Origin: an uncultured Hyphomicrobium sp.
Lineage (GTDB): Bacteria; Pseudomonadota; Alphaproteobacteria; Rhizobiales; Hyphomicrobiaceae
Direction of reading: 5' to 3'
Length of the DNA: 64,000 bases
Assembly (NCBI GenBank): GCA_964386545.1
Contig: CAYLSI010000014.1
Location: forward strand, 8,298-72,297
In this document: positions 7,541-41,315 of the stretch, piece by piece
How positions within the stretch are numbered: position 1 is the first letter of the stretch
How the letters are laid out: each line of letters opens with the position of its first letter
Translations under genes and position numbers: made by a program
The notes under the pieces: generated by a model
The model's input: only the letters and a program-made list of their open reading frames with translations
What the model was told of the DNA's origin: nothing
The model's database searches: none

Positions 7541-7599
7541 TTGGTTGGTCGCATTTTGTCGCGACGAACCGGCCTCCACGTCGTCGGAAAATTCTCTAG
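7541..7599. repeat. dispersed intergenic repeat, copy A (conserved nested hairpin GCATTTTg-tCGCGACGAAccggcctccacGTCGTCG-GAAAATtC)
   Basis: About 85% identical to the elements at 16659-16721, 44950-45050 and 56165-56256. Its terminal CTCTAG supplies the TAG stop of the minus-strand PBP gene. Confidence 0.8.
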
Positions 7600-10082
7600 C
7601 GGAGCTGCTGCAGGTTGAGCGCGCGGGTCAGCGCATCCGAGGCCGTGTCGCGCGTGTTGCTGGCGACGGGCTTCGGCGGGGCGGCTTTCGGCGGCAACAG
7701 GCCCGGCTTCGGGTTCTCGCGCGCGTGTCCGGCGAGATCCTCCAGCAGAACCTCCAGGAGAGGGGCTGCGACATCGGCTGCATGGATCTTGCGCGCCCAC
7801 GGCTGCTGCCCGGAGCCCGTTCCGACAAGCACGACATACGAGTAGGCCGCGCCGTTGGCGAACTGCAGGCCGCCCGTGGTCCATACGTCCACCGTGGCAT
7901 CCGGATCGGCCGTGACCTGCGTGCCCGTCTTGGCGAAATGTAGGCGCAGGCCGCCGCGGCGTGCCGGGCACCACTGGGCGAGCGACTTCAGCGTGCCCGT
8001 GGGCTTGCCGCCGGCGGTGTAGCAGAGCGGGGCCGAGAGCAGCGCGCGCAGGAGCGGGGCGGCGCGGCGTTTGATCAGCCGGTTCGGAATGATGGGATCG
8101 CGCACGTCGAAGCTGCCGTCGCGTTTTTCGTTCACGTCCGTGAAGTCGTAGCGCCGGATCAGCGTCGGCTCGCGCACCGGCGTCGCGCCGCGCCCGATCA
8201 GTGCGGCGAGGATCACGGCCGACATATGATGGACCTTGCGCGGCGAGCCCGAGATCTGCCCCAGCACGGCCGCCGTCGAGGGCGGCGTATCGCTCCCGGC
8301 GGCGTCGCGCGGCGGCATCGTGAACCCGAAGCCGTCGATCAGGCCCCGCATGCGCGCCTGCCCGGCGAGCGCCGTGCGGTTCAAGAGCGGCGCATTGAGC
8401 GAGCAGGCGAACGCCACGATGGCGCGGCGGCCATAGCGACCGTTGCCCTTGGCGCATGTTTCGAGCCCACGATCCGGGGCCGCCGTGTCGACGTAGAGGG
8501 ACGCCGCGCTGTCGCGGCCGCTGTTGGCGATGGCGATGGCCGCGAGCATCTTGCCGGTCGACGCGATCATGCGCGGATCGCGGGCGGGATCGTAAAGGCC
8601 GGTTTCGCCGCTGCGGGCGACGGTCGCGCCGAAGTAGGGGGCCGTCTCGCCGCTCTCGTAGTAGCGCACGATCTCACCCTTTTCGTTCGCTGCGACGACC
8701 GTCACGGTGGGCATGATGCGGCCATCGCCCGTGCGGGCGGGGTCGAGGGTGTAGCGGCTGTCGACCTTCGCACGCACCGCCGCGTCGATCTTCGCGAGTG
8801 CCACGTCGATCTTATTGTGGAAGGCGAGATTGGAGGCGGCTTCGAACGTGGTCGTCACGCCGCGCACGTGATCGCGCCAGGCGAAGCCGTACGCCTCCTT
8901 CATCTCCTCGCGCAGGCCGAAGCGGGCCGACGGCATCAACGCGTTGGCGCGCACGACCGGGTTGGCCACGGCGCGCCTGGCGACCTGCGGCGCGTGCCGG
9001 TCGAGCGCGTCCTGCAGGCGCGGCTTGACCTTGGGATCGGGCGGACCGCCGGCCATGGCGATCAGCTCGAACAGCACGTCCTTCTTCTGTCCCTCATCCG
9101 AGATCAGCGCCTCCGCGCAGACGCGGGCGCGCACCTCGACGATGAAGCGCCAGCGGTCGAGGCGGACCTCGTTCAGGCGCGCGTCGCCCTTGAGCAGGAT
9201 GATCGGCTTGTTGACGGCGGAGGCGAGCACGAACTGCTCGGCCATGGTCAGCTCGCTCGAGTCCTTGCCGAACACGACGCGGCTCGTGAGCTCGACGCCA
9301 TGCAACGGCGCGCCGCCCGTGCGCTGCGCGAGCCAGATGTGGTTCGCGGCCCACTGCTTCAGCATCGTGTCCGAGCCGTCACGCGTGAGCTCATGATAGA
9401 CGACCGGCGCCAGCCACCATTCCGACAGCTTGCGCGAGAGCTTCGTCATCGCGCCTTCGCCGGCGTGCGGGGGCGTATTGTAGATCACGCGCACGAGCTG
9501 CATCGGCAGTGTCGAACCGCCGACGCCGAGGCTCGGGCGCTTCAAGGCGACGGAGCGGGCGAGCGACGAATAGGGGATCTTGAGGACGCCCGGCAGGTCG
9601 ATGCCGAACGGATTGCGCCAGGTGCCGATATAACGGTCCTCGTGGTGCACGAGGCATTGCCAGTAGTAGGGCGGCACCTCGCGCACGGGGATCGACTTGT
9701 GGTCAGGGTTGGCCGTGTAGTCGCCGACGTCGATGGCGGCGTCCGTGTAGTTGACGTCACGCTGGCTGTCGAGGCGGGCATCGAACGTGCCGACGAAGCT
9801 GCCGGGCGCATCGTAGATCGCGGTCGCGAGCCAGCGCTCGGCGTCGTAGCGCAGCTTCTCGCCGAGCAGGTAATGGCCGGCATAGCCCCGCAAGGGCGCG
9901 ACGACATAGACGAGGAGGACGGCGAAGACGACATAGGCGACGGCCGCCACGGCCACATGGCGCAGCGGGCCCAGACGGGGATTGAACGCCACGCCTTCGC
10001 AAAACAGGCTCACGATCCGCATCGGGATGCCGATCGCAAGCTCGCGCAAACGGGCTAAGAGGCGAAAGAGGAACAGCATCAC
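7596..10082 (-). CDS. bifunctional class A penicillin-binding protein (GT51 transglycosylase + transpeptidase; PBP1C-like)
   Basis: 828 aa. GT51 motif GGSTLPMQLVRV, transpeptidase SxxK (ASTGK), N-terminal TM anchor. Confidence 0.8.
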   Translation of the reverse strand: MMLFLFRLLARLRELAIGIPMRIVSLFCEGVAFNPRLGPLRHVAVAAVAYVVFAVLLVYVVAPLRGYAGHYLLGEKLRYDAERWLATAIYDAPGSFVGTFDARLDSQRDVNYTDAAIDVGDYTANPDHKSIPVREVPPYYWQCLVHHEDRYIGTWRNPFGIDLPGVLKIPYSSLARSVALKRPSLGVGGSTLPMQLVRVIYNTPPHAGEGAMTKLSRKLSEWWLAPVVYHELTRDGSDTMLKQWAANHIWLAQRTGGAPLHGVELTSRVVFGKDSSELTMAEQFVLASAVNKPIILLKGDARLNEVRLDRWRFIVEVRARVCAEALISDEGQKKDVLFELIAMAGGPPDPKVKPRLQDALDRHAPQVARRAVANPVVRANALMPSARFGLREEMKEAYGFAWRDHVRGVTTTFEAASNLAFHNKIDVALAKIDAAVRAKVDSRYTLDPARTGDGRIMPTVTVVAANEKGEIVRYYESGETAPYFGATVARSGETGLYDPARDPRMIASTGKMLAAIAIANSGRDSAASLYVDTAAPDRGLETCAKGNGRYGRRAIVAFACSLNAPLLNRTALAGQARMRGLIDGFGFTMPPRDAAGSDTPPSTAAVLGQISGSPRKVHHMSAVILAALIGRGATPVREPTLIRRYDFTDVNEKRDGSFDVRDPIIPNRLIKRRAAPLLRALLSAPLCYTAGGKPTGTLKSLAQWCPARRGGLRLHFAKTGTQVTADPDATVDVWTTGGLQFANGAAYSYVVLVGTGSGQQPWARKIHAADVAAPLLEVLLEDLAGHARENPKPGLLPPKAAPPKPVASNTRDTASDALTRALNLQQLR

Positions 10083-10720
10083 GCGACGAACAATCGAGAT
10101 TCCAGCGGTCGACCCCGGCGCTGGTCCTCCCCGGTCGTTAGCGGATGTTTGTGGCGGAAGGTCGGAGAAAGCGGGGCGCGGCCGGCCCGGCCGGCCGGTC
10201 GCGAGCCCGTTGCCGGATCACAGGAATTGGCATCACCGACGTCGGATCTGGGGCGTCGGAGCCTGGGATGCAGATCACGGGGGAGCTCGATCGCGGGAGA
10301 TCGGATCACGGGACGATCAGATGGCCCAATTGGCAGATCGCAGAGCCGGGGGCATCAGAGCCGGGCATGGGAAATGATTGCGGAAATGACTGCGCCTCTT
10401 TCGTCCGGGTCGCACGAGAGCCCGGCGCGAAATGCAAACGCGTTTGGCCGTTCCGGCCGCTCGTCACATCGTGTTGAGCAGAACGAAAAGTCCTACCCCA
10501 ACCGCAGGCCCCAAAAGCGTGGCCACAACGAGCATCAAAAAGGATCTACCAAGCATAACACGACATACCCCGCACAAACGCGCCCACTGGCTTTGCCGCC
10601 CACGCAACGCCGGTGTCTTCCACCTGTTCCACGGAGACCCCTCACCCGCGAAACATGAGGATTATACAACGGGGAAAAAATTCCCTCATCCGATTTTCTA
10701 ATTTCGGCCACAATGTTGGT

Positions 10721-10754
10721 TTGCAGCGCAGAGCATCCTTTTGCTGCGTTGCAA
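10721..10754. promoter_or_regulatory. 34-bp palindrome TTGCAGCGCAG-N12-CTGCGTTGCAA in the long AT-rich intergenic region. A further TTGCAGCGCA half-site lies about 100 bp away, and TATAAT boxes on the minus strand lie at 10820-10825 and 10661-10666.
   Basis: Inverted repeat read directly (11-bp arms, 1 mismatch). Located between the 3' end of the dual-ATPase operon and the PBP gene start. Confidence 0.3.
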
Positions 10755-10908
10755 ATGAAGTTTACGGAAGACCCGTTTTTCTTCCGCTTTTCAAATTCTT
10801 CTTATCAATCCGCTCACAGATTATAGCGGCCAGCGTTTTGCAGCGCATCACGGCGGCGCGAAACGATTGCCTGTTTTTGTTGTATTTTTGCTACATCCAG
10901 ACGCGCCG

Positions 10909-13900
10909 TTAAGGCCGACGAGCCGTGGATAACCTCAGCGCGTCGAACAGCCGGAGCTGGCGCTCGTCCTGGCCCTTCGTCTCGTGGGCGAGCTGCTCGA
11001 TCCGGTCGAACGGCACCTGCTCGGCTTCGATCAGCGAGCGCTGCGCCTTCATCGAGCGGACGAGACCCTCCTGCACGAGGTGGAACTCGCCCACCGTCTG
11101 ACCGGGAAGCACGGCAGCCGGATCGAGGCCGCTCTCGCTCTGGAACGCCGCCTTGAGCTTGCGCAACGCGGTATCCTCTCGCACGCGGCCGATGAACCAG
11201 CTCGTGATCTGGTCGCGGCTCTTGTAGTCGAGGTCGCCCGGCGACTGGGTGGCGAGCATGATGCCGAGGCCGGCCGAGCGGGCGCGCTTCAGAAGGCTCT
11301 GCAGCGGCTCGGCCGTCGCGGGCTTGGCGTTGGCCGGGATGTAGAGATCCGCCTCGTCGAACATGACGACGGCCTGCAGCTCCTCGTTCGGGTTCCTCTG
11401 GCAGAAGCGCAACGCTTCCGACAGGAACTGGGCGACCCAGAACAGGATGTTCTCGTTGTCGCCGAGGAAGCCCGTGTAGATGATCGAGAGGCGCGTGCGG
11501 CCGTCGCGAGCGTAAGGTCCGAGGCCGAGCAGGCTTTCCATCTGCAGGCTTTCGCCGCCGCCCTCGAAGAGCGCCGAGTTGCGGTGACGCAAGCTGTCGA
11601 GCTGGGCGACGAGGTCGCGGCGGATGCGGCCCGAGGGGTCCATGCGCTGCGTCAGGTCCGTCAGCTCGGGATCCTCGTCCTCGAGCAGGTTGATGAGATC
11701 GCCCAGCGTCACCTCGCGGCTGTGGCGCGATCCCAGGATGCGGAGCGCGACCGACAGCGTGCCCGACTGCTTCTGGTGCGTGGCCGAGTTCTTCAAGTGC
11801 AGCATGTCGCCGAGGGCGGCCGCCGACAGGTTCGCGAGCAGTTGCTGCTCGTGGTCGGGCAGCTCGTTGATGCCGTTCGGCAGAAGCGTGATCGAGATCG
11901 GGCGCCCCGAGGAGCGGCCCGGCGTATAGACCGCGACGTCGATGGCGTCGGCCAGGCGCTCGCGCTCGCCGCGGCGCTCGCCGAACTCGTCGTCGTTGGC
12001 GCGCCAGACGTCGGGATTGGCGTAGCTGCAGAGGTCGCCCTTGCGGTCGATCAGGACGGCGGGAATGCCCTTGAGCAGCAGTTGCTCGATCAGACACAAG
12101 GCGAGTGTCGTCTTACCGGAGCCGGAGCCACCGAGCACCGCCGCGTGGCGCTTCAACACGTTCATGTTGAGCGAGATCGGCTTGCTGCGGGTGCCGGTCT
12201 CGCGGCCCGCCAGGATGCTCGTGCCGTTGGCGCCGGTCTCATCGAGGATGACGGAGAGCGGCAGCTCGTCGTCGTTGGCCGGAAGCGGCTCCTCGCCGCC
12301 GGCGCCGAGCGACCAGGGCGGCGGCAGCAGCGCATTGCCATTGCCCTCGCCGCGTGCGGCAGCCGGAGTCGCAGCAGGAGCGGACAGCGCCGGCGCGGAA
12401 TCGGCGGCAACGGCCGTGGCATCGGTCTCGCGCGTCGTGCGGGGCAACGCGCGGCCGAGGAGATCGAGGCGCAGGATGTTGATGATCGGGATGATGTTCG
12501 AGAGCAGCTTGGCGTCCTCGAACCACGCCTGGAAGCCGGGATCGTTCTTATAGTGGGCGTGGAACTCGCGCACGGTCATCATGCGTTCCCACTCGGGGAT
12601 CGGGATGGTGAACAGGCGGCCGCCGCCCTCGCGGAATTTGCGGAAGGCCTGCGCCGTCTGGTTCTTCTTGTTCGGCGGATAGTCGCTCGCGCGCAGCATC
12701 ATGCAGCTCTTGCCGGCGATCATCGGCATGACCTTGTCGAGCTGGCGCTTGAGGCCGCCACCCTGCGTCGGGCGGTTGCACAGGAACACGCGCAGGTCGC
12801 TCATGTGGCCGGACTTGTGGTTGATGCGCACGTCGATGGCGGGCACCTCGTCCGAGATCTCGACGCGGTTGACGCCGAGCTTGATCGCGCCGCCCCATTC
12901 GTCACGCGCGAGCGCGAGCGCGGAGGTCAGCACGTCCATCAGCTCGTTCTCGTCGGACGGGATCTCCGCCTCGGACGCGTTCTGGAAGCGGTCCCAGGCG
13001 TCGCGGTAGTCGACCGACGGGGCGAGCGGGCGCGCGGACTCGCTCGGCTCGGCATTGCCGAAAATGCCGCCGAGCACGGACGCCAGCGTCGACGTCCAGT
13101 TGCCCTGGTCGGCGGGCTCGTCCTCGGGCTCGTCGGGCGCCGTCTTGGCGCGCAGGCGGCTTTGCGCGTGCTCGAGCAGGCGGCGCGTCGAGAGACCGCC
13201 GAACTCCTCGAAGAAATCCGGGCCGAAGTACTGCGCGGGATCGGGGAAGCCGAGGCCGCCCGTCTGCTCCGCCAGATGCTCGAGCCGCTTGGCGATGATC
13301 AGGCGCGCCTCCGCCGGCGTGCGGCTTTCGAGCAGCGGCACCGGGCCCGACTTCTCGATGCGATCGACATAGGACTGCGCGAGCACGCCGCGGACCTGGC
13401 CGTAGAAGTCCTCCAGCACCGAGATGATGATGATGGCGTTGGGCAGGCGGTTGGCAATCTGGATCAGGTCGCGCGTGGCCTTCTGGAACCGCTCCTCGGC
13501 GTCGTCGAAGAAACGCAGGTCCTCCACCTGGTCGATGGAGAACACGAAGGCGGCCCGCTCGACCGTCCACATCAGCGTGCCGAGCGCGGTGATGATCTCG
13601 AATGCGCGGTCCTCGCCCGTGTTCGGATCGAGCGCGGCGACGGCCTGATGGGCGAGCGGCGTCAACTGGCGGCCGAACAGGTATTGGCGCACGCGCTGGT
13701 CGATGCGCGGGTCCTTGCGCTCGAGGTAGAGCAGCGCGCGCACGATGTTGATGTCGAGCTCCAGCTCGCGGAATTTCGCGCTGGCGACGATCTCGTCGGC
13801 GAGCTTCAGCACGAGGCTCGCCAGCGCCTCGTCCGACAGCGAGCCTTCGCGCAGCTCGTCGATCCGGCGGGCAGAGAGAACCTCGGAATCGCCCACGAGC

Positions 13901-14325
13901 CGCGCGGTCAGGCGGGCGAGGCCGGTCTCGCCCTCCTCGTCCGGGTGATAGGGCTTCTCGAGCGAGTGGACGATGCGGCGCAGGTAGTAGTCGGCATAGT
14001 TCGAGACGTCGGGCGTCATCTGGGCGTAGCCGAAATAGGCCTTGCCTTCGCGGTGGGCCGTCGTGCGCAGGGCGCGCAGGAGATGCGTCTTGCCGGCGCC
14101 CGACTGGCCGTGGAACAGCAGAATGCGCGAGGCCGTCGCCGCGCCGCCGGTGCGCGCGCTGGTGATCTCCGCCAGGAGGTCCTCGAACTTGCGGCGCGCC
14201 TTGACGTGCACGGCCGGGACATCCACGGGATCGGCCCGCCAGATGTCATCCTCCCACGTGATGCTGTGCTCAAAAGCCTGGTACAGCTTGTCGGTCGCAC
14301 CGGCTTCGACGACGTCGTCATGCAT
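10909..14325 (-). CDS. large dual P-loop NTPase: N-terminal DnaA/IstB-like (GKTHLL) ATPase module fused to a C-terminal HerA/FtsK-superfamily (DUF853/YjgR-like) ATPase module
   Basis: 1138 aa. Walker A #1 is LFHGQSGAGKTHLLRAL, with Walker B FVFSIDQVEDL. A low-complexity Ala/Pro linker separates the modules. Walker A #2 is VLGGSGSGKTTLALCL followed by DRKGDL (the HerA/YjgR signature), Walker B is VVMFDEADLY, and there is a LATQSP motif. RBS GGAGA sits 10 nt upstream. The opposite-strand 1148-aa ORF is R/A-rich antisense noise. Confidence 0.7.
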   Translation of the reverse strand: MHDDVVEAGATDKLYQAFEHSITWEDDIWRADPVDVPAVHVKARRKFEDLLAEITSARTGGAATASRILLFHGQSGAGKTHLLRALRTTAHREGKAYFGYAQMTPDVSNYADYYLRRIVHSLEKPYHPDEEGETGLARLTARLVGDSEVLSARRIDELREGSLSDEALASLVLKLADEIVASAKFRELELDINIVRALLYLERKDPRIDQRVRQYLFGRQLTPLAHQAVAALDPNTGEDRAFEIITALGTLMWTVERAAFVFSIDQVEDLRFFDDAEERFQKATRDLIQIANRLPNAIIIISVLEDFYGQVRGVLAQSYVDRIEKSGPVPLLESRTPAEARLIIAKRLEHLAEQTGGLGFPDPAQYFGPDFFEEFGGLSTRRLLEHAQSRLRAKTAPDEPEDEPADQGNWTSTLASVLGGIFGNAEPSESARPLAPSVDYRDAWDRFQNASEAEIPSDENELMDVLTSALALARDEWGGAIKLGVNRVEISDEVPAIDVRINHKSGHMSDLRVFLCNRPTQGGGLKRQLDKVMPMIAGKSCMMLRASDYPPNKKNQTAQAFRKFREGGGRLFTIPIPEWERMMTVREFHAHYKNDPGFQAWFEDAKLLSNIIPIINILRLDLLGRALPRTTRETDATAVAADSAPALSAPAATPAAARGEGNGNALLPPPWSLGAGGEEPLPANDDELPLSVILDETGANGTSILAGRETGTRSKPISLNMNVLKRHAAVLGGSGSGKTTLALCLIEQLLLKGIPAVLIDRKGDLCSYANPDVWRANDDEFGERRGERERLADAIDVAVYTPGRSSGRPISITLLPNGINELPDHEQQLLANLSAAALGDMLHLKNSATHQKQSGTLSVALRILGSRHSREVTLGDLINLLEDEDPELTDLTQRMDPSGRIRRDLVAQLDSLRHRNSALFEGGGESLQMESLLGLGPYARDGRTRLSIIYTGFLGDNENILFWVAQFLSEALRFCQRNPNEELQAVVMFDEADLYIPANAKPATAEPLQSLLKRARSAGLGIMLATQSPGDLDYKSRDQITSWFIGRVREDTALRKLKAAFQSESGLDPAAVLPGQTVGEFHLVQEGLVRSMKAQRSLIEAEQVPFDRIEQLAHETKGQDERQLRLFDALRLSTARRP

Positions 14326-14359
14326 GCGTCAACGGTCTCCAACGCAATCGTTACGGGCG

Positions 14360-15538
14360 CTACTCTTCGACCCGAACGAAGTGCCAAACGGTATTCTTGT
14401 AGGGAACGGCCGAGCTCTCGAGGTCCTTGATGGCCTTCTTGTCCTTGAGGTCGGCATTGGCGAGAACAAGCGCGCCCAGGCGATGCGCCTCGGCCAGCAT
14501 GCATTTGAACTCGATCTCGGAGACGTCCCACGTCGGCTCGGACACGCGAATCGCGTCCCAGACGTGCGAGATAAAGGCCTTGCGGCTGCCTGGCCAGCCC
14601 TCGGCCCGCGCGGCCGCCGCCGTCTTCACAGCAGCCGCGAACTCGGCGAGGTCGGGGCGCGACGCCTTCGGCGGCACCTTGGCGGGGGCGGCATCGTTGG
14701 CGGGCGCCGGCAGCTCGGGCGCGGGCGCTGCGACGCGCACCGGCATCGCCATGCGCTCGGCGTCCGGCGTCGCGATCTCCGCCTCTCCGGCTTCGAGGCA
14801 CTTCGCACCGAGGCGGCGCAGGAGGCCCGTGCGCAGTCCTTCGAGCGTCGCCTCGCGCGCGCCGGCCTGCTCGGCCGCAAGCTCGGCGATGAGCTTGGCG
14901 TCGGTCGTGAACGCGCGCGGGTTCTGCGAGAGCTGGCCGGCCAGAAGCCGCCCGGCCTTGGCCGAGAGCGCCGAGCCTTTGCCGATGCCGGCCTTGATGC
15001 GGTTGCCGAAGGCGCGCTCCAGCGCCAGCACGGCGAGCTGGGCGCGCAGCTTGGTGGGCGGTGCGTTCTTCTTCACCGAGAGGCCGAACGCGTTCTGCAC
15101 GATCATCGTGCGCAGGCCGTCGATGCGTGCGAGCTGCTTCAGGCGGGCGGGCGTCTCGCGCTCGACGCCGAGCCCCTTGGCGATCAACGCGACGTCGCGC
15201 AGCTCGCTCCAGGAGGCCGATCCGATCTCCTTCATGCCGAGGTAGCGGGCGGCCGCGGCCGCGCCAGCGTCCGTCGCCTTGAGTTTGCCCTTGGTTTCGG
15301 AGGCCAGGCCGCTCGCGACGAGCTGGCCGATCTCCTTCTCGGCCAGACGCCGCCAGTCCGCGGGCGAGATCTTGTGCGTGAACAGCGGGGCGAGATCGGC
15401 AGTCGCCTCGGCGCGCGCCGCACCCCCGTCCGCACTCAAGCGAACCAGGATCACGTGGCCGATGGCCGTCGCACCGCCGCGTCGCGACGCGGTCAGGGTG
15501 GCACCGCTCATGAGCGCCGACATGTCGTACGCCTCCAT
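14360..15538 (-). CDS. hypothetical Ala-rich protein with no recognisable domain; first gene of the operon with the dual ATPase (34-bp gap)
   Basis: Same strand, 34-bp spacing to the downstream gene, genome-typical codon usage. Start ambiguous (15538, 15523 or 15514; 15523 has the best GAGG RBS). Confidence 0.55.
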   Translation of the reverse strand: MEAYDMSALMSGATLTASRRGGATAIGHVILVRLSADGGAARAEATADLAPLFTHKISPADWRRLAEKEIGQLVASGLASETKGKLKATDAGAAAAARYLGMKEIGSASWSELRDVALIAKGLGVERETPARLKQLARIDGLRTMIVQNAFGLSVKKNAPPTKLRAQLAVLALERAFGNRIKAGIGKGSALSAKAGRLLAGQLSQNPRAFTTDAKLIAELAAEQAGAREATLEGLRTGLLRRLGAKCLEAGEAEIATPDAERMAMPVRVAAPAPELPAPANDAAPAKVPPKASRPDLAEFAAAVKTAAAARAEGWPGSRKAFISHVWDAIRVSEPTWDVSEIEFKCMLAEAHRLGALVLANADLKDKKAIKDLESSAVPYKNTVWHFVRVEE

Positions 15539-15971
15539 CTCGTTGGGCGTTGAGAAGGGGGAAAAGCCAGACGCACGAATCACCGGCTCGATTCGGTGAG
15601 TTTGGGCGAGAGCGCTTTGACTTCCAAGGGAGTCTCGGGCACGCCGCAGTTATTTTTGGCGAGTTGTAGAGACTCGTGCGCCCGGCCGGCCACCGCGCCC
15701 TGCTTTACCCTACAACCGTCCGAATTCACCGGCGTATTGCCGCATTCGCGTCACCTTCATCGGCAACATTCGGTGCAGGGTTGTGGGGTTTTTGCAAAGC
15801 CAGAGGCAGGCTCGACAATGGCGGCTCCCGTCAGACACGCCATCGCGGGACGCCTCCCGGCCGCTGGTCTCTTCCCGCACAGGGGTTCACCGCCTCTTAG
15901 CCTTAACGCCGAGTTAACTGGTAGCTGCGATGGTCAATCTCAGTACCGCGCGTCCACTTGCGGGAGTTATG

Positions 15972-16658
15972 GGAATGTATCGCGTCGCCCTTAGTTTTCT
16001 TGCCGCCGTCCTCACTCTGGGATTGGGGGCTTGCAGCCTCAACACGAGCAGCGTCTCGTCCGGGTTCAACGACCTCGGCACGACCGCCTCGATCGATCCG
16101 CTCAGCGGATCGCGCCAATCCACCACCACCGGCTCCATCGACCGCCGGCAGCGCTCGGGTCTGACCGGCGCGCAGGTCGCCGCCTATTCGCCCGACAAGG
16201 CCCCTTCAGGGTCCTATGAGAAAGCGCCGGCCGGCTCGCTCGCCGACCGCGATTACTCGTCGACCAACCTCGACCCCGACATGGCGCGGGACCTGATCAA
16301 CCAGTACCGCCAGGAAAACGGCCTCAAGCCGCTCAAGCTCAACGCCTCGCTCACCGAGGCCGCGAAGGGCCACAGCCGCGACCTCGCCAAGTGGGACCGC
16401 ATCTCGCACTACGGCAGCGACGGCTCGAACCCGTGGGACCGCGTGAAGCGCACGGGCTACAAGCCGCGCCTCGCCGCCGAGAACGTCGGCACGGGCCAGG
16501 TTTCGTTCAAGGAAGTGCTGCGGGGATGGAAGGACAGCCCCGGTCACAACAAGAACCTGCTGCTGGCGGACGCCCGCGAGATGGGCCTCGCCCTGGTGCA
16601 GGACCCCAAGACCGAGTTCAAATCGTTCTGGACGCTGGTGATCGGCGCACCGATGTAG
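15972..16658 (+). CDS. CAP/SCP/PR-1 domain lipoprotein (YkwD-like)
   Basis: Lipobox LTLGLGAC. C-terminal CAP motifs HSRDLAKWDRISHYG...GHNKNLL. Confidence 0.7.
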   Translation, partial: GMYRVALSFLAAVLTLGLGACSLNTSSVSSGFNDLGTTASIDPLSGSRQSTTTGSIDRRQRSGLTGAQVAAYSPDKAPSGSYEKAPAGSLADRDYSSTNLDPDMARDLINQYRQENGLKPLKLNASLTEAAKGHSRDLAKWDRISHYGSDGSNPWDRVKRTGYKPRLAAENVGTGQVSFKEVLRGWKDSPGHNKNLLLADAREMGLALVQDPKTEFKSFWTLVIGAPM

Positions 16659-40779: not shown

Positions 40780-41171
40780 GCAAAACTCCCAAACTCAAAC
40801 GCGGTGCGCCGGAGCGCTTTCTTTAACCGACCCGGCCGAAATCGGGCACGGGCCTTCGGTGACCTTCGTTACCGGCCAGCGCCGCCGGGGGACGTGCACC
40901 CTGGCAGCAGGTCGCCGGCCGCAACCCCACAGCTCGGCGCGGGCCCGGGCTTGAGCCTTGCGGCGCCGCCTTCCGCCGCCCGCCCGCTCACGGCTCCCGA
41001 AGGAGACGCAAGACGAGACCGGACGGCTCCGGCTTGGCCGCGAGGCGGTATCCGCACGGGCGCGGAGCGCTTCACCGCTTGCCGCCGCTCCCCCTCTCGG
41101 CCGAAGCCTCGAAGGCGAGCATTGGCCGGAGCAACGGCCGGCTTCCCAGAAGTCGAGATCGCTTGGAAGGC

Positions 41172-41243
41172 GATTGGCATGGGAGTCGAACCCACGACAG
41201 CGAGAGTAACAGTCTCGTGCTCTACCCACTGAGCTAGCCACTG
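41172..41243 (-). tRNA. tRNA-like sequence with anticodon GTT (Asn), apparently degenerate
   Basis: Canonical D-arm (GCTCAGTGGGTAGAGC), anticodon arm CGAGA-CTGTTAC-TCTCG and T-arm (GTGGG-TTCGACT-CCCAT). The 8-9 linker is missing relative to the tRNA-His-like 5' GTGGCTA, and acceptor 1:72 and 3:70 are mismatched. Could still be annotated as tRNA-Asn by covariance tools. Confidence 0.4.
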
Positions 41244-41315
41244 GAGAAGCCAAAGGGACTCGAACCCCCGACCGCCCGGAGATGTCCGGGTGCTCTGCCG
41301 CTGAGCTATGGCCTC
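41242..41315 (-). tRNA. tRNA-like sequence with CAT in a non-canonical 6-nt anticodon loop (Met/Ile2-like), with 3' CCA that abuts or overlaps the 5' end of the neighbouring tRNA-like sequence
   Basis: Good acceptor stem (GAGGCCA/TGGCTTC), D-arm, T-arm (GGGGG-TTCGAGT-CCCTT) and encoded CCA. The anticodon arm is CCCGG-ACATCT-CCGGG, a 6-nt loop. Confidence 0.4.

Follow-up and report, generated by a model that had tools for sequence, protein, structure and literature searches.

The window, that is, the whole 64,000-nt stretch of DNA from an uncultured Hyphomicrobium sp. analyzed here (assembly GCA_964386545.1, contig CAYLSI010000014.1), carries on its reverse strand an operon of two genes, encoding a winged-helix protein, hereafter the partner, and a 1138-amino acid protein, hereafter the motor, in which two ATPase modules are united. 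The pair is considered to be the nuclease-less Hyphomicrobiaceae version of a predicted three-gene "capture" cassette and not a new defense island. In the overall picture, for which a probability of about 0.6 is estimated, it would be a capture-type DNA machine devoid of its nuclease that either has a host DNA-handling role or acts together with an outside factor. Such a role or factor is favored over classical defense because the nuclease is gone and the motor is under constraint at the level of housekeeping genes.

The wider family of the motor was delineated by searching exhaustively through 1.84 billion representative proteins (clusters at 50% identity), which yielded 3288 clusters of relatives, 611 of them with E ≤ 1e-30. 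Many relatives outside the Hyphomicrobiaceae are full-length at 32–40% identity; named members belong to the Myxococcota (Myxococcus, Archangium, Hyalangium, Chondromyces, and Paraliomyxa), the Planctomycetota (Singulisphaera, Tautonia, and Isosphaeraceae), and the Cyanobacteria (Nodosilinea and Leptolyngbya). The distant sample comprises eight distinct loci, seven with intact upstream DNA (L083, L084, L085/L086, L088, L089, L090, and L091) and one, L087, cut by a contig end. The gene order is identical in all seven intact loci, with a 370–480-amino acid protein carrying a C-terminal DUF559 domain followed by a 333–388-amino acid protein and then by the motor; stop and start codons of these genes often overlap, and L087 retains the 3′ end of the DUF559 gene. 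The middle gene of the cassette encodes a homologue of the partner (hhalign probability 99.2%, E 7e-20). The DUF559 proteins are mutually homologous over their full length and have kept the residues E..D, ExDG..H, and RRDRRKD; judged from its sequence, the cassette nuclease is a DUF559/Vsr-type endonuclease with intact catalytic residues. PADLOC v2.0.0, run on the three proteins encoded by the distant cassette, called no system, no relative of the motor was found among the IMG/VR viral contigs, 72,556 plasmids yielded merely partial HerA-domain matches, and the literature search revealed no experimental study of any family member. The link to conflict systems suspected in the sequence-only reading is supported at the level of the family.

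The genomic contexts of the distant loci vary, most of them lying among ordinary metabolic genes. A few distant cassettes adjoin integrase or transposase genes, toxin-antitoxin-like genes (UPF0175/DUF3368, PemK), or an AAA_15/AAA_21 ATPase pair (such neighbors are found at L084, 14960–21045; L091, 3548–4269 and 14399–16396; and L087, 7435–7761); an integrase together with transposases is present at one distant locus. Some motors of the three-gene type (P0270, P0284, P0339, and P0503) are extended at the N-terminus by about 200–250 amino acids, and precomputed FHA-domain matches exist for P0503, hinting at additional sensory inputs in some lineages.

At least 392 relatives were obtained when one genome per species was scanned; the best 80 all come from Hyphomicrobiaceae or close kin and, together with two more, make up the set of 82 loci in which synteny was assessed. 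A DUF559-family homologue is missing from the 64-kb window and from all 82 related loci, inspected for 10 kb on either side of each. The partner lies directly upstream of the motor in 70 of the 72 loci with enough DNA, a divergent gene for a CAP-family lipoprotein is found upstream in 56 of 66, and a gene for a penicillin-binding protein (PBP) with a transglycosylase domain follows downstream in the same orientation in 39 of 64. The neighbors are housekeeping genes (CAP, PBP, CobST, and similar), with no defense genes nearby, and the guanine-plus-cytosine (GC) content of the operon genes equals that of the flanks. Loci whose motor is closer to the window protein also tend to have closer partner, CAP, and PBP proteins (Spearman ~0.8 between motor identity and that of each of the three). 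With a mean identity of 72%, versus 47.5% for the partner, 63% for CAP, and 65% for PBP, the motor shows the strongest conservation among the four, ranking above the class-A PBP and CobT. Pairwise ratios of nonsynonymous to synonymous substitution rates (dN/dS), rough values with dS near saturation, amount to 0.11–0.24 for the motor and 0.16–0.33 for the partner; dN of the motor is below that of PBP and that of CAP in every comparison. In about 80 species, neither reading frame is disrupted. The pair occupies a constant chromosomal site, is passed on vertically, and is subject to strong purifying selection.

These results bear on the setting that the sequence-only reading had described as island-like and on its idea of a phage-defense island. 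The GC content equal to that of the flanks, the housekeeping neighbors, the single syntenic site, and the co-divergence over 82 loci speak against an island; fixed synteny and vertical descent across these related loci, the outcome that the sequence-only reading itself had named as counter-evidence, speak against a defense island, and the DUF559 gene, the defining effector of the wider family, is missing in the window.

The direction of evolution was approached with a crude midpoint-rooted neighbor-joining tree without outgroup, for only four tips of which the three-gene form was confirmed. Distances from Hyphomicrobiaceae to the other members average 1.38, while those among the others average 1.19 with a maximum of 1.70. 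Since the Hyphomicrobiaceae clade nests within the diversity of the wider family, the sequences would point to a loss of the nuclease in the Hyphomicrobiaceae rather than to an ancestral two-gene state.

The motor (10909..14325, reverse strand, as are all its parts) starts with an Orc/Cdc6/BrxC-type AAA+ module of residues 1–397 (13135..14325), in which the Walker A motif GQSGAGKTHLL occupies residues 73–83, the Walker B motif IDQVED is part of FVFSIDQVED at residues 259–268, and R322 and R381 are invariant. A middle domain of residues 437–623 (12457..13017) and an Ala/Pro-rich linker of residues 624–700 (12226..12456), predicted to be disordered with a predicted local distance difference test score (pLDDT) below 50, lead over to a HerA/FtsK-clade ATPase of residues 701–1138 (10909..12225, including the stop codon). 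The latter contains GGSGSGKTT (732–740), DRKGDL (760–765), FDEAD within MFDEADLY (988–995), LATQSPGDLDY (with LATQSP at 1024–1029), and the arginines R1014 and R1016. Both Walker A/B sets and the arginines do not vary among 37 aligned homologues with identities down to 29%. Pfam places AAA_22/AAA_16 at residues 50–289 and DUF87/HerA_C at 711–1036. The sequence-only reading was right in its AAA+ and HerA/FtsK domain calls and in the linker between the modules, and every motif it had quoted is present in the translation. An AlphaFold model of the protein (mean pLDDT 82.5) comprises three folded parts besides the disordered linker, with a helical bundle inserted in the HerA module at residues ~824–921. 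This module is closest to HerA and to the C-domain of DndH, both of which outscore secretion ATPases; the motor has neither a predicted membrane segment nor the alpha or gamma domains of FtsK.

In the model, the middle domain runs through a helix, three strands, a helix, a strand, a helix, a strand, and a helix, with pLDDT values of 82–94. This order of elements is the core topology of the restriction endonuclease (REase) fold. Invariant positions of the domain are occupied by Trp, Pro, Cys, Gly, Leu, Gln, Arg, and Phe; a D...(D/E)xK motif is lacking, and no PDB or Pfam sequence match to the domain was obtained. The domain is probably REase-like and inactive, a candidate inactive REase (iREase) insert, because of its predicted topology, the missing acidic/lysine catalytic set, and the location of an iREase at the same position in the literature (PMC10853773).

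The second gene of the operon ends 34 bp upstream of the motor gene, and both open reading frames (ORFs) of the two-gene operon proposed from the sequence are borne out. As listed in the ORF translation, the partner would have 407 amino acids, starting from a GTG at 15583 (14360..15583, reverse strand). However, more than 100 homologues are about 387 amino acids long and cover 95% of the 407-amino acid ORF; a GGAGG sits 8 nt 5′ of an ATG at 15523; and the distance from GTG to ATG, counted on an alignment, is 60 nt in the window versus 55 nt in a close relative, which is not a multiple of three. The GTG was rejected as start codon because its frame is not kept in the close relative. In H. nitrativorans NL23, the partner corresponds to W911_00575. 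Owing to the length of the homologues, the GGAGG before the ATG, and the lack of conservation of the GTG-ATG frame, the partner almost certainly starts, as far as the sequences tell, at the ATG at 15523 and has 387 amino acids (14360..15523, reverse strand).

The partner, earlier described as free of recognizable domains, is a winged-helix protein, with a confidently assigned N-terminal winged-helix domain at residues ~20–95. The remainder consists of a helical middle part, a disordered Pro/Ala linker at ~250–280, and a very conserved C-terminal domain of three helices plus a strand. Searches with the partner returned zero matches in Pfam, NCBIfam, or PADLOC; Pfam, run over all homologues of the partner and of the middle domain of the motor, gave merely weak matches to HemN_C, which is winged-helix-like; and PDB sequence searches with the partner, the N-terminal module, and the middle domain gave no significant match. 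The pairing of an ATPase with an uncharacterized partner proved to be a sound observation. Annotation of the locus is corrected on three points, namely, the start codon of the partner, its winged-helix domain, and a so far unannotated small gene in the downstream spacer.

"HerA/FtsK capture" neighborhoods have been predicted computationally (PMC10853773; Nucleic Acids Research 2024), with an Orc/CDC6 ATPase, an inactive REase "invariably inserted" after the AAA+ core, an active REase, a HerA/FtsK ATPase, and a winged helix-turn-helix (wHTH) domain as core domains. Following the proposal made there, Orc/CDC6 would localize the machine on DNA, and HerA/FtsK would intercept invader DNA and pump it toward the nuclease. 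The operon of the window would provide two of the three parts of such an Orc/Cdc6-HerA/FtsK capture-type machine. The first part, the partner, would be a multi-winged-helix DNA-binding adaptor responsible for DNA recognition and docking via its invariant C-terminal domain. The second, the motor, would combine an Orc/Cdc6/BrxC-like AAA+ switch, the probably inactive REase-like domain, and a HerA/FtsK ring translocase; in this assembly, the HerA module would form a ring that pumps double-stranded DNA, and the Orc/Cdc6 module would act as an ATP-dependent DNA-binding switch or loader. In the three-gene relatives, adaptor and Orc/Cdc6 module would locate the target DNA and load onto it, the HerA/FtsK ring would pump, and the DUF559 nuclease would cut. 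In Hyphomicrobiaceae, the nuclease would have been lost and the adaptor-motor pair kept as a fixed locus. Most likely, the pair has retained ATP-dependent binding and translocation of double-stranded DNA, with an output that would no longer be cleavage encoded by the cassette; it would probably have been co-opted for a host DNA-handling role or work with a factor encoded elsewhere. The oligomeric ring, the translocation of DNA, and the contact between adaptor and motor are modeled on the biology of HerA, FtsK, DndH, ORC, and BrxC, and the direction of evolution and the present-day role are likewise inferred. Seen directly in the data are the domain identities, the contrast between three-gene and two-gene organization, the synteny, the co-divergence, and the selection.

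Several points weigh against this picture. The absence of the nuclease refers to the 10-kb flanks and the 64-kb window, and a copy could reside elsewhere in the genomes. Fixation was judged from loci that carry the pair, and a conserved chromosomal position alone would be compatible with a role in defense. The tree is in reality unrooted, and a two-gene ancestor that recruited the nuclease later could also underlie it. The iREase assignment is drawn from predicted topology alone, and DNA translocation as well as complex formation are extrapolated from HerA, FtsK, and DndH.

The strongest alternative, unlikely in our judgment and still to be reckoned with, holds that the pair is an active anti-phage or anti-plasmid system, which would recruit a nuclease encoded elsewhere or block the invader by translocation alone. 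The wider family bears hallmarks of a conflict system, that is, an operon with a nuclease, a patchy distribution across phyla, and some loci near integrase, transposase, or toxin-antitoxin genes. Moreover, the best PADLOC match of the motor is to mad8 of a defense system (7e-22), with HerA models behind; an architecture of this kind has been predicted to act against invaders (PMC10853773); and the partner evolves faster than the motor. However, no effector gene is present in cis, no defense genes are found nearby, and no complete PADLOC system was matched. Synteny is fixed and co-divergence with the housekeeping neighbors extends over at least 80 species-level genomes, the motor being more conserved than even class-A PBP and CobT.

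Another alternative starts from the lifestyle of the host. The pair could be a cell-cycle DNA translocase of the budding, hyphal Hyphomicrobiaceae, moving or clearing the chromosome through the narrow hypha into the bud, for example, with the partner as site-specific loader. FtsK/HerA motors are known DNA pumps, and the motor for chromosome transfer through the stalk of Hyphomonas is reportedly still unknown. That the chromosome passes through the stalk in this budding bacterium is described in an earlier study (PMC6650430). Conservation of the pair throughout the family and its housekeeping-level constraint would fit such a role, as would two conserved elements in the divergent upstream region, the extent of which, ~350 bp, had been recognized correctly (the gap to the CAP gene measures 346–406 bp). 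One of them is a TTAA-N7-TTAA motif (15903–15917), which we take to be CtrA-box-like; it is unchanged across six species and occurs in 48 of 69 loci (background, 0.037 per kb). Loci without the motif are mostly those that also lack the CAP gene; since it tracks that gene, it probably belongs to the CAP promoter, which suggests cell-cycle control of the CAP gene. For the same reason, the CtrA-like box was rejected as a regulator of the operon. The other element is an inverted repeat, AGCCGG-TGATTCGYGCGT-CYGGCT, around a GANTC site (15565..15588, reverse strand), located ~40–60 nt before the ATG of the partner gene. Its columns are invariant across six species, and a strict match to GGTGATTCGYGCG is found in 31 of 69 loci; the block could be an operator, a hairpin of the 5′ untranslated region, or a methylation-sensitive element. 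The translocase idea is attractive and purely circumstantial, without direct support. Against it stand the CtrA-like box that follows the divergent CAP gene and not the operon, a motor without membrane anchor and without FtsK alpha or gamma domains, and relatives in non-budding Myxococcota and Cyanobacteria that carry a nuclease; we regard it as improbable. Little probability is likewise assigned to a combined scenario, in which an anti-invader machine would have lost its nuclease in the ancestor of the Hyphomicrobiaceae and become a core, possibly cell-cycle-linked DNA pump, with the partner as loader and a 30-amino acid membrane peptide, encoded downstream of the motor, maybe as accessory.

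Very improbable is the interpretation of the large protein as a coupling ATPase of conjugation or secretion (VirB4/TrwB/EccC-like) with an accessory protein. No type IV or type VII secretion genes are found within 10 kb in any locus, no membrane segment is predicted, the family is absent from plasmids save for partial HerA-domain matches, and the NCBIfam scores are far under the cut-offs (e.g., 30 bits versus 366), with HerA and DndH-C scoring higher. That the pair is a decaying, functionless remnant of a defense cassette, as the loss of the effector gene might imply, is hardly credible and already contradicted by the conservation data, that is, frames intact in about 80 species, invariance of all catalytic motifs, dN/dS of 0.11–0.33, and a motor more conserved than its housekeeping neighbors.

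Besides the nuclease-less capture-type pair itself, the locus contains a conserved small gene, located in the 826-bp spacer (10083–10908) that follows the motor gene and that the sequence-only reading had characterized as AT-rich, repeat-laden DNA. Alignment with five relatives revealed a block with a codon-like conservation pattern, corresponding to a gene for a hydrophobic peptide of 30 amino acids, MLGRSFLMLVVATLLGPAVGVGLFVLLNTM (10464..10556, reverse strand). Its ATG is conserved and preceded by a near-invariant ribosome-binding site, GCGGGGT, and a promoter-like box, TGTATAAT, is found ~100 nt upstream of the gene at 10660–10667. With a hidden Markov model (HMM) of the peptide, a same-strand match immediately following the motor gene is obtained in 62 of the 82 loci at E ≤ 3e-4 (65 at E < 0.05) and none in the distant cassettes. 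The peptide gene remains linked to the motor gene in loci whose PBP gene has been replaced, as in L001, or displaced. Family searches gave no assignment for the peptide, gene callers sometimes annotate it as "hypothetical protein," and a consensus RNA structure of the small-ORF leader was not found in 25 loci.

The other claims on the spacer stood in part. It is AT-rich, with a GC content of 0.54 versus ~0.68 for the window, and a GATC cluster is indeed present, with eight sites in 124 bp (10216–10339; 0.54 expected, Poisson P ~1e-7) compared to one per ~229 bp throughout the window, where GATC is over-represented (558 matches versus 445 expected). Three decamers resembling GGATCACGGG lie within the cluster; across the window, GGATCACGGG occurs 11 times versus 7.4 expected, which is no enrichment. 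The stretch is specific to the window and does not align with a relative of 88% identity; the cluster is given no weight. The palindromes and repeats are not convincing, being short two-copy matches of 10–25 nt. A scan for terminators and promoters remained at chance level, and Rfam, applied to the whole window at gathering thresholds and to the spacer at E ≤ 1, returned merely two tRNAs located far away. Two adjacent tRNA-like genes lie at 41169–41315 on the reverse strand, one for tRNA-Asn(GTT) and the other with 49 bits in Rfam, for which ARAGORN left the anticodon undetermined, giving it as two-base.

With respect to the neighboring genes, the only Pfam match of the 828-amino acid "PBP" (7596–10082, reverse strand) is the transglycosylase domain at residues 125–296, with no transpeptidase domain at E ≤ 0.1. 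For the CAP/SCP-family ORF at 15930–16658 on the forward strand, the upstream codons are not conserved in relatives; the ORF probably starts not at 15930 but at an ATG near 15972 (MYRVALSF...LGLGAC), with a lipoprotein-type signal.

Summarizing, the window holds an apparent natural "effector-deleted" version of the cassette that is kept by a whole bacterial family under strong constraint. If a host function were true, this would be a clear case of a defense-type DNA motor taken over for a cellular role. The natural nuclease-free pair offers a handle for the study of motor and adaptor without a toxic nuclease. The large, uncharacterized family, the sampled members of which share a constant layout of nuclease, winged-helix adaptor, and Orc/Cdc6-HerA motor, known so far solely from computational prediction, is a concrete candidate for experiments. 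Nothing in these findings contradicts current understanding.

Among known systems, FtsK/SpoIIIE translocases differ from the motor, which has no membrane anchor and no alpha or gamma (KOPS-reading) domain. The HerA-NurA end-resection machine differs in that no NurA is present, the nuclease of the relatives being of the DUF559 type, and in that an Orc/Cdc6 module and an adaptor are added. In comparison with SIR2-HerA and DUF4297-HerA (Nezha/Gao_Her), which the sequence-only reading had mentioned, the partner is a winged-helix protein instead of SIR2 or DUF4297 and HerA is fused to a second ATPase; NCBIfam HerA_antiphage reaches 33 bits on the motor versus a cut-off of 800. From BREX, the BrxC/PglY and BrxD proteins of which are Orc/Cdc6-clade AAA+ ATPases, the locus is set apart by the lack of PglX, PglZ, BrxA, BrxB, and BrxL nearby, the NCBIfam BrxD score being 19.7 bits versus a cut-off of 350. 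The C-domain of DndH/DptH (PDB 7es4) is related to the HerA module, but the PADLOC DndH match spans residues 981–1065 of the motor alone, and DndF, DndG, the N-terminal domains of DndH, and phosphorothioation genes are missing in the window. MADS provides the best PADLOC match, mad8 (PDLC04140), which aligns residues 711–1087 of the motor with positions 14–290 of the 314-position model; only the ATPase core matches, however, the match to mad3 is marginal, and the other mad genes are absent.

The closest counterparts are the capture neighborhoods of PMC10853773, a theme repeated in PMC12839542, and the earlier statement that no described system has this architecture does not hold in view of this prediction. 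The window and all sampled Hyphomicrobiaceae differ from the capture systems by the lack of an active REase; the Hyphomicrobiaceae locus is fixed and vertically inherited, not mobile, and the distant three-gene loci occupy variable contexts. The likeness is one of features, drawn from the published description, and the DUF559/Vsr-like nuclease of the relatives may or may not match one of the "two distinct families" of that paper. Sometimes, the capture neighborhoods include an extra fast-evolving multi-wHTH protein, and the helical insert of the motor at residues ~824–921 fits a "4-helical bundle" variant of HerA/FtsK described there (PMC10853773). Features in common are the Orc/CDC6 AAA+ module, a putative REase-like domain without catalytic residues after it, here proposed from predicted topology, a HerA/FtsK module that bears a helical-bundle insert and lacks an FtsK-alpha domain, a winged-helix protein that is encoded separately and evolves faster, and, in the relatives outside the Hyphomicrobiaceae, a gene for an active REase in the operon.

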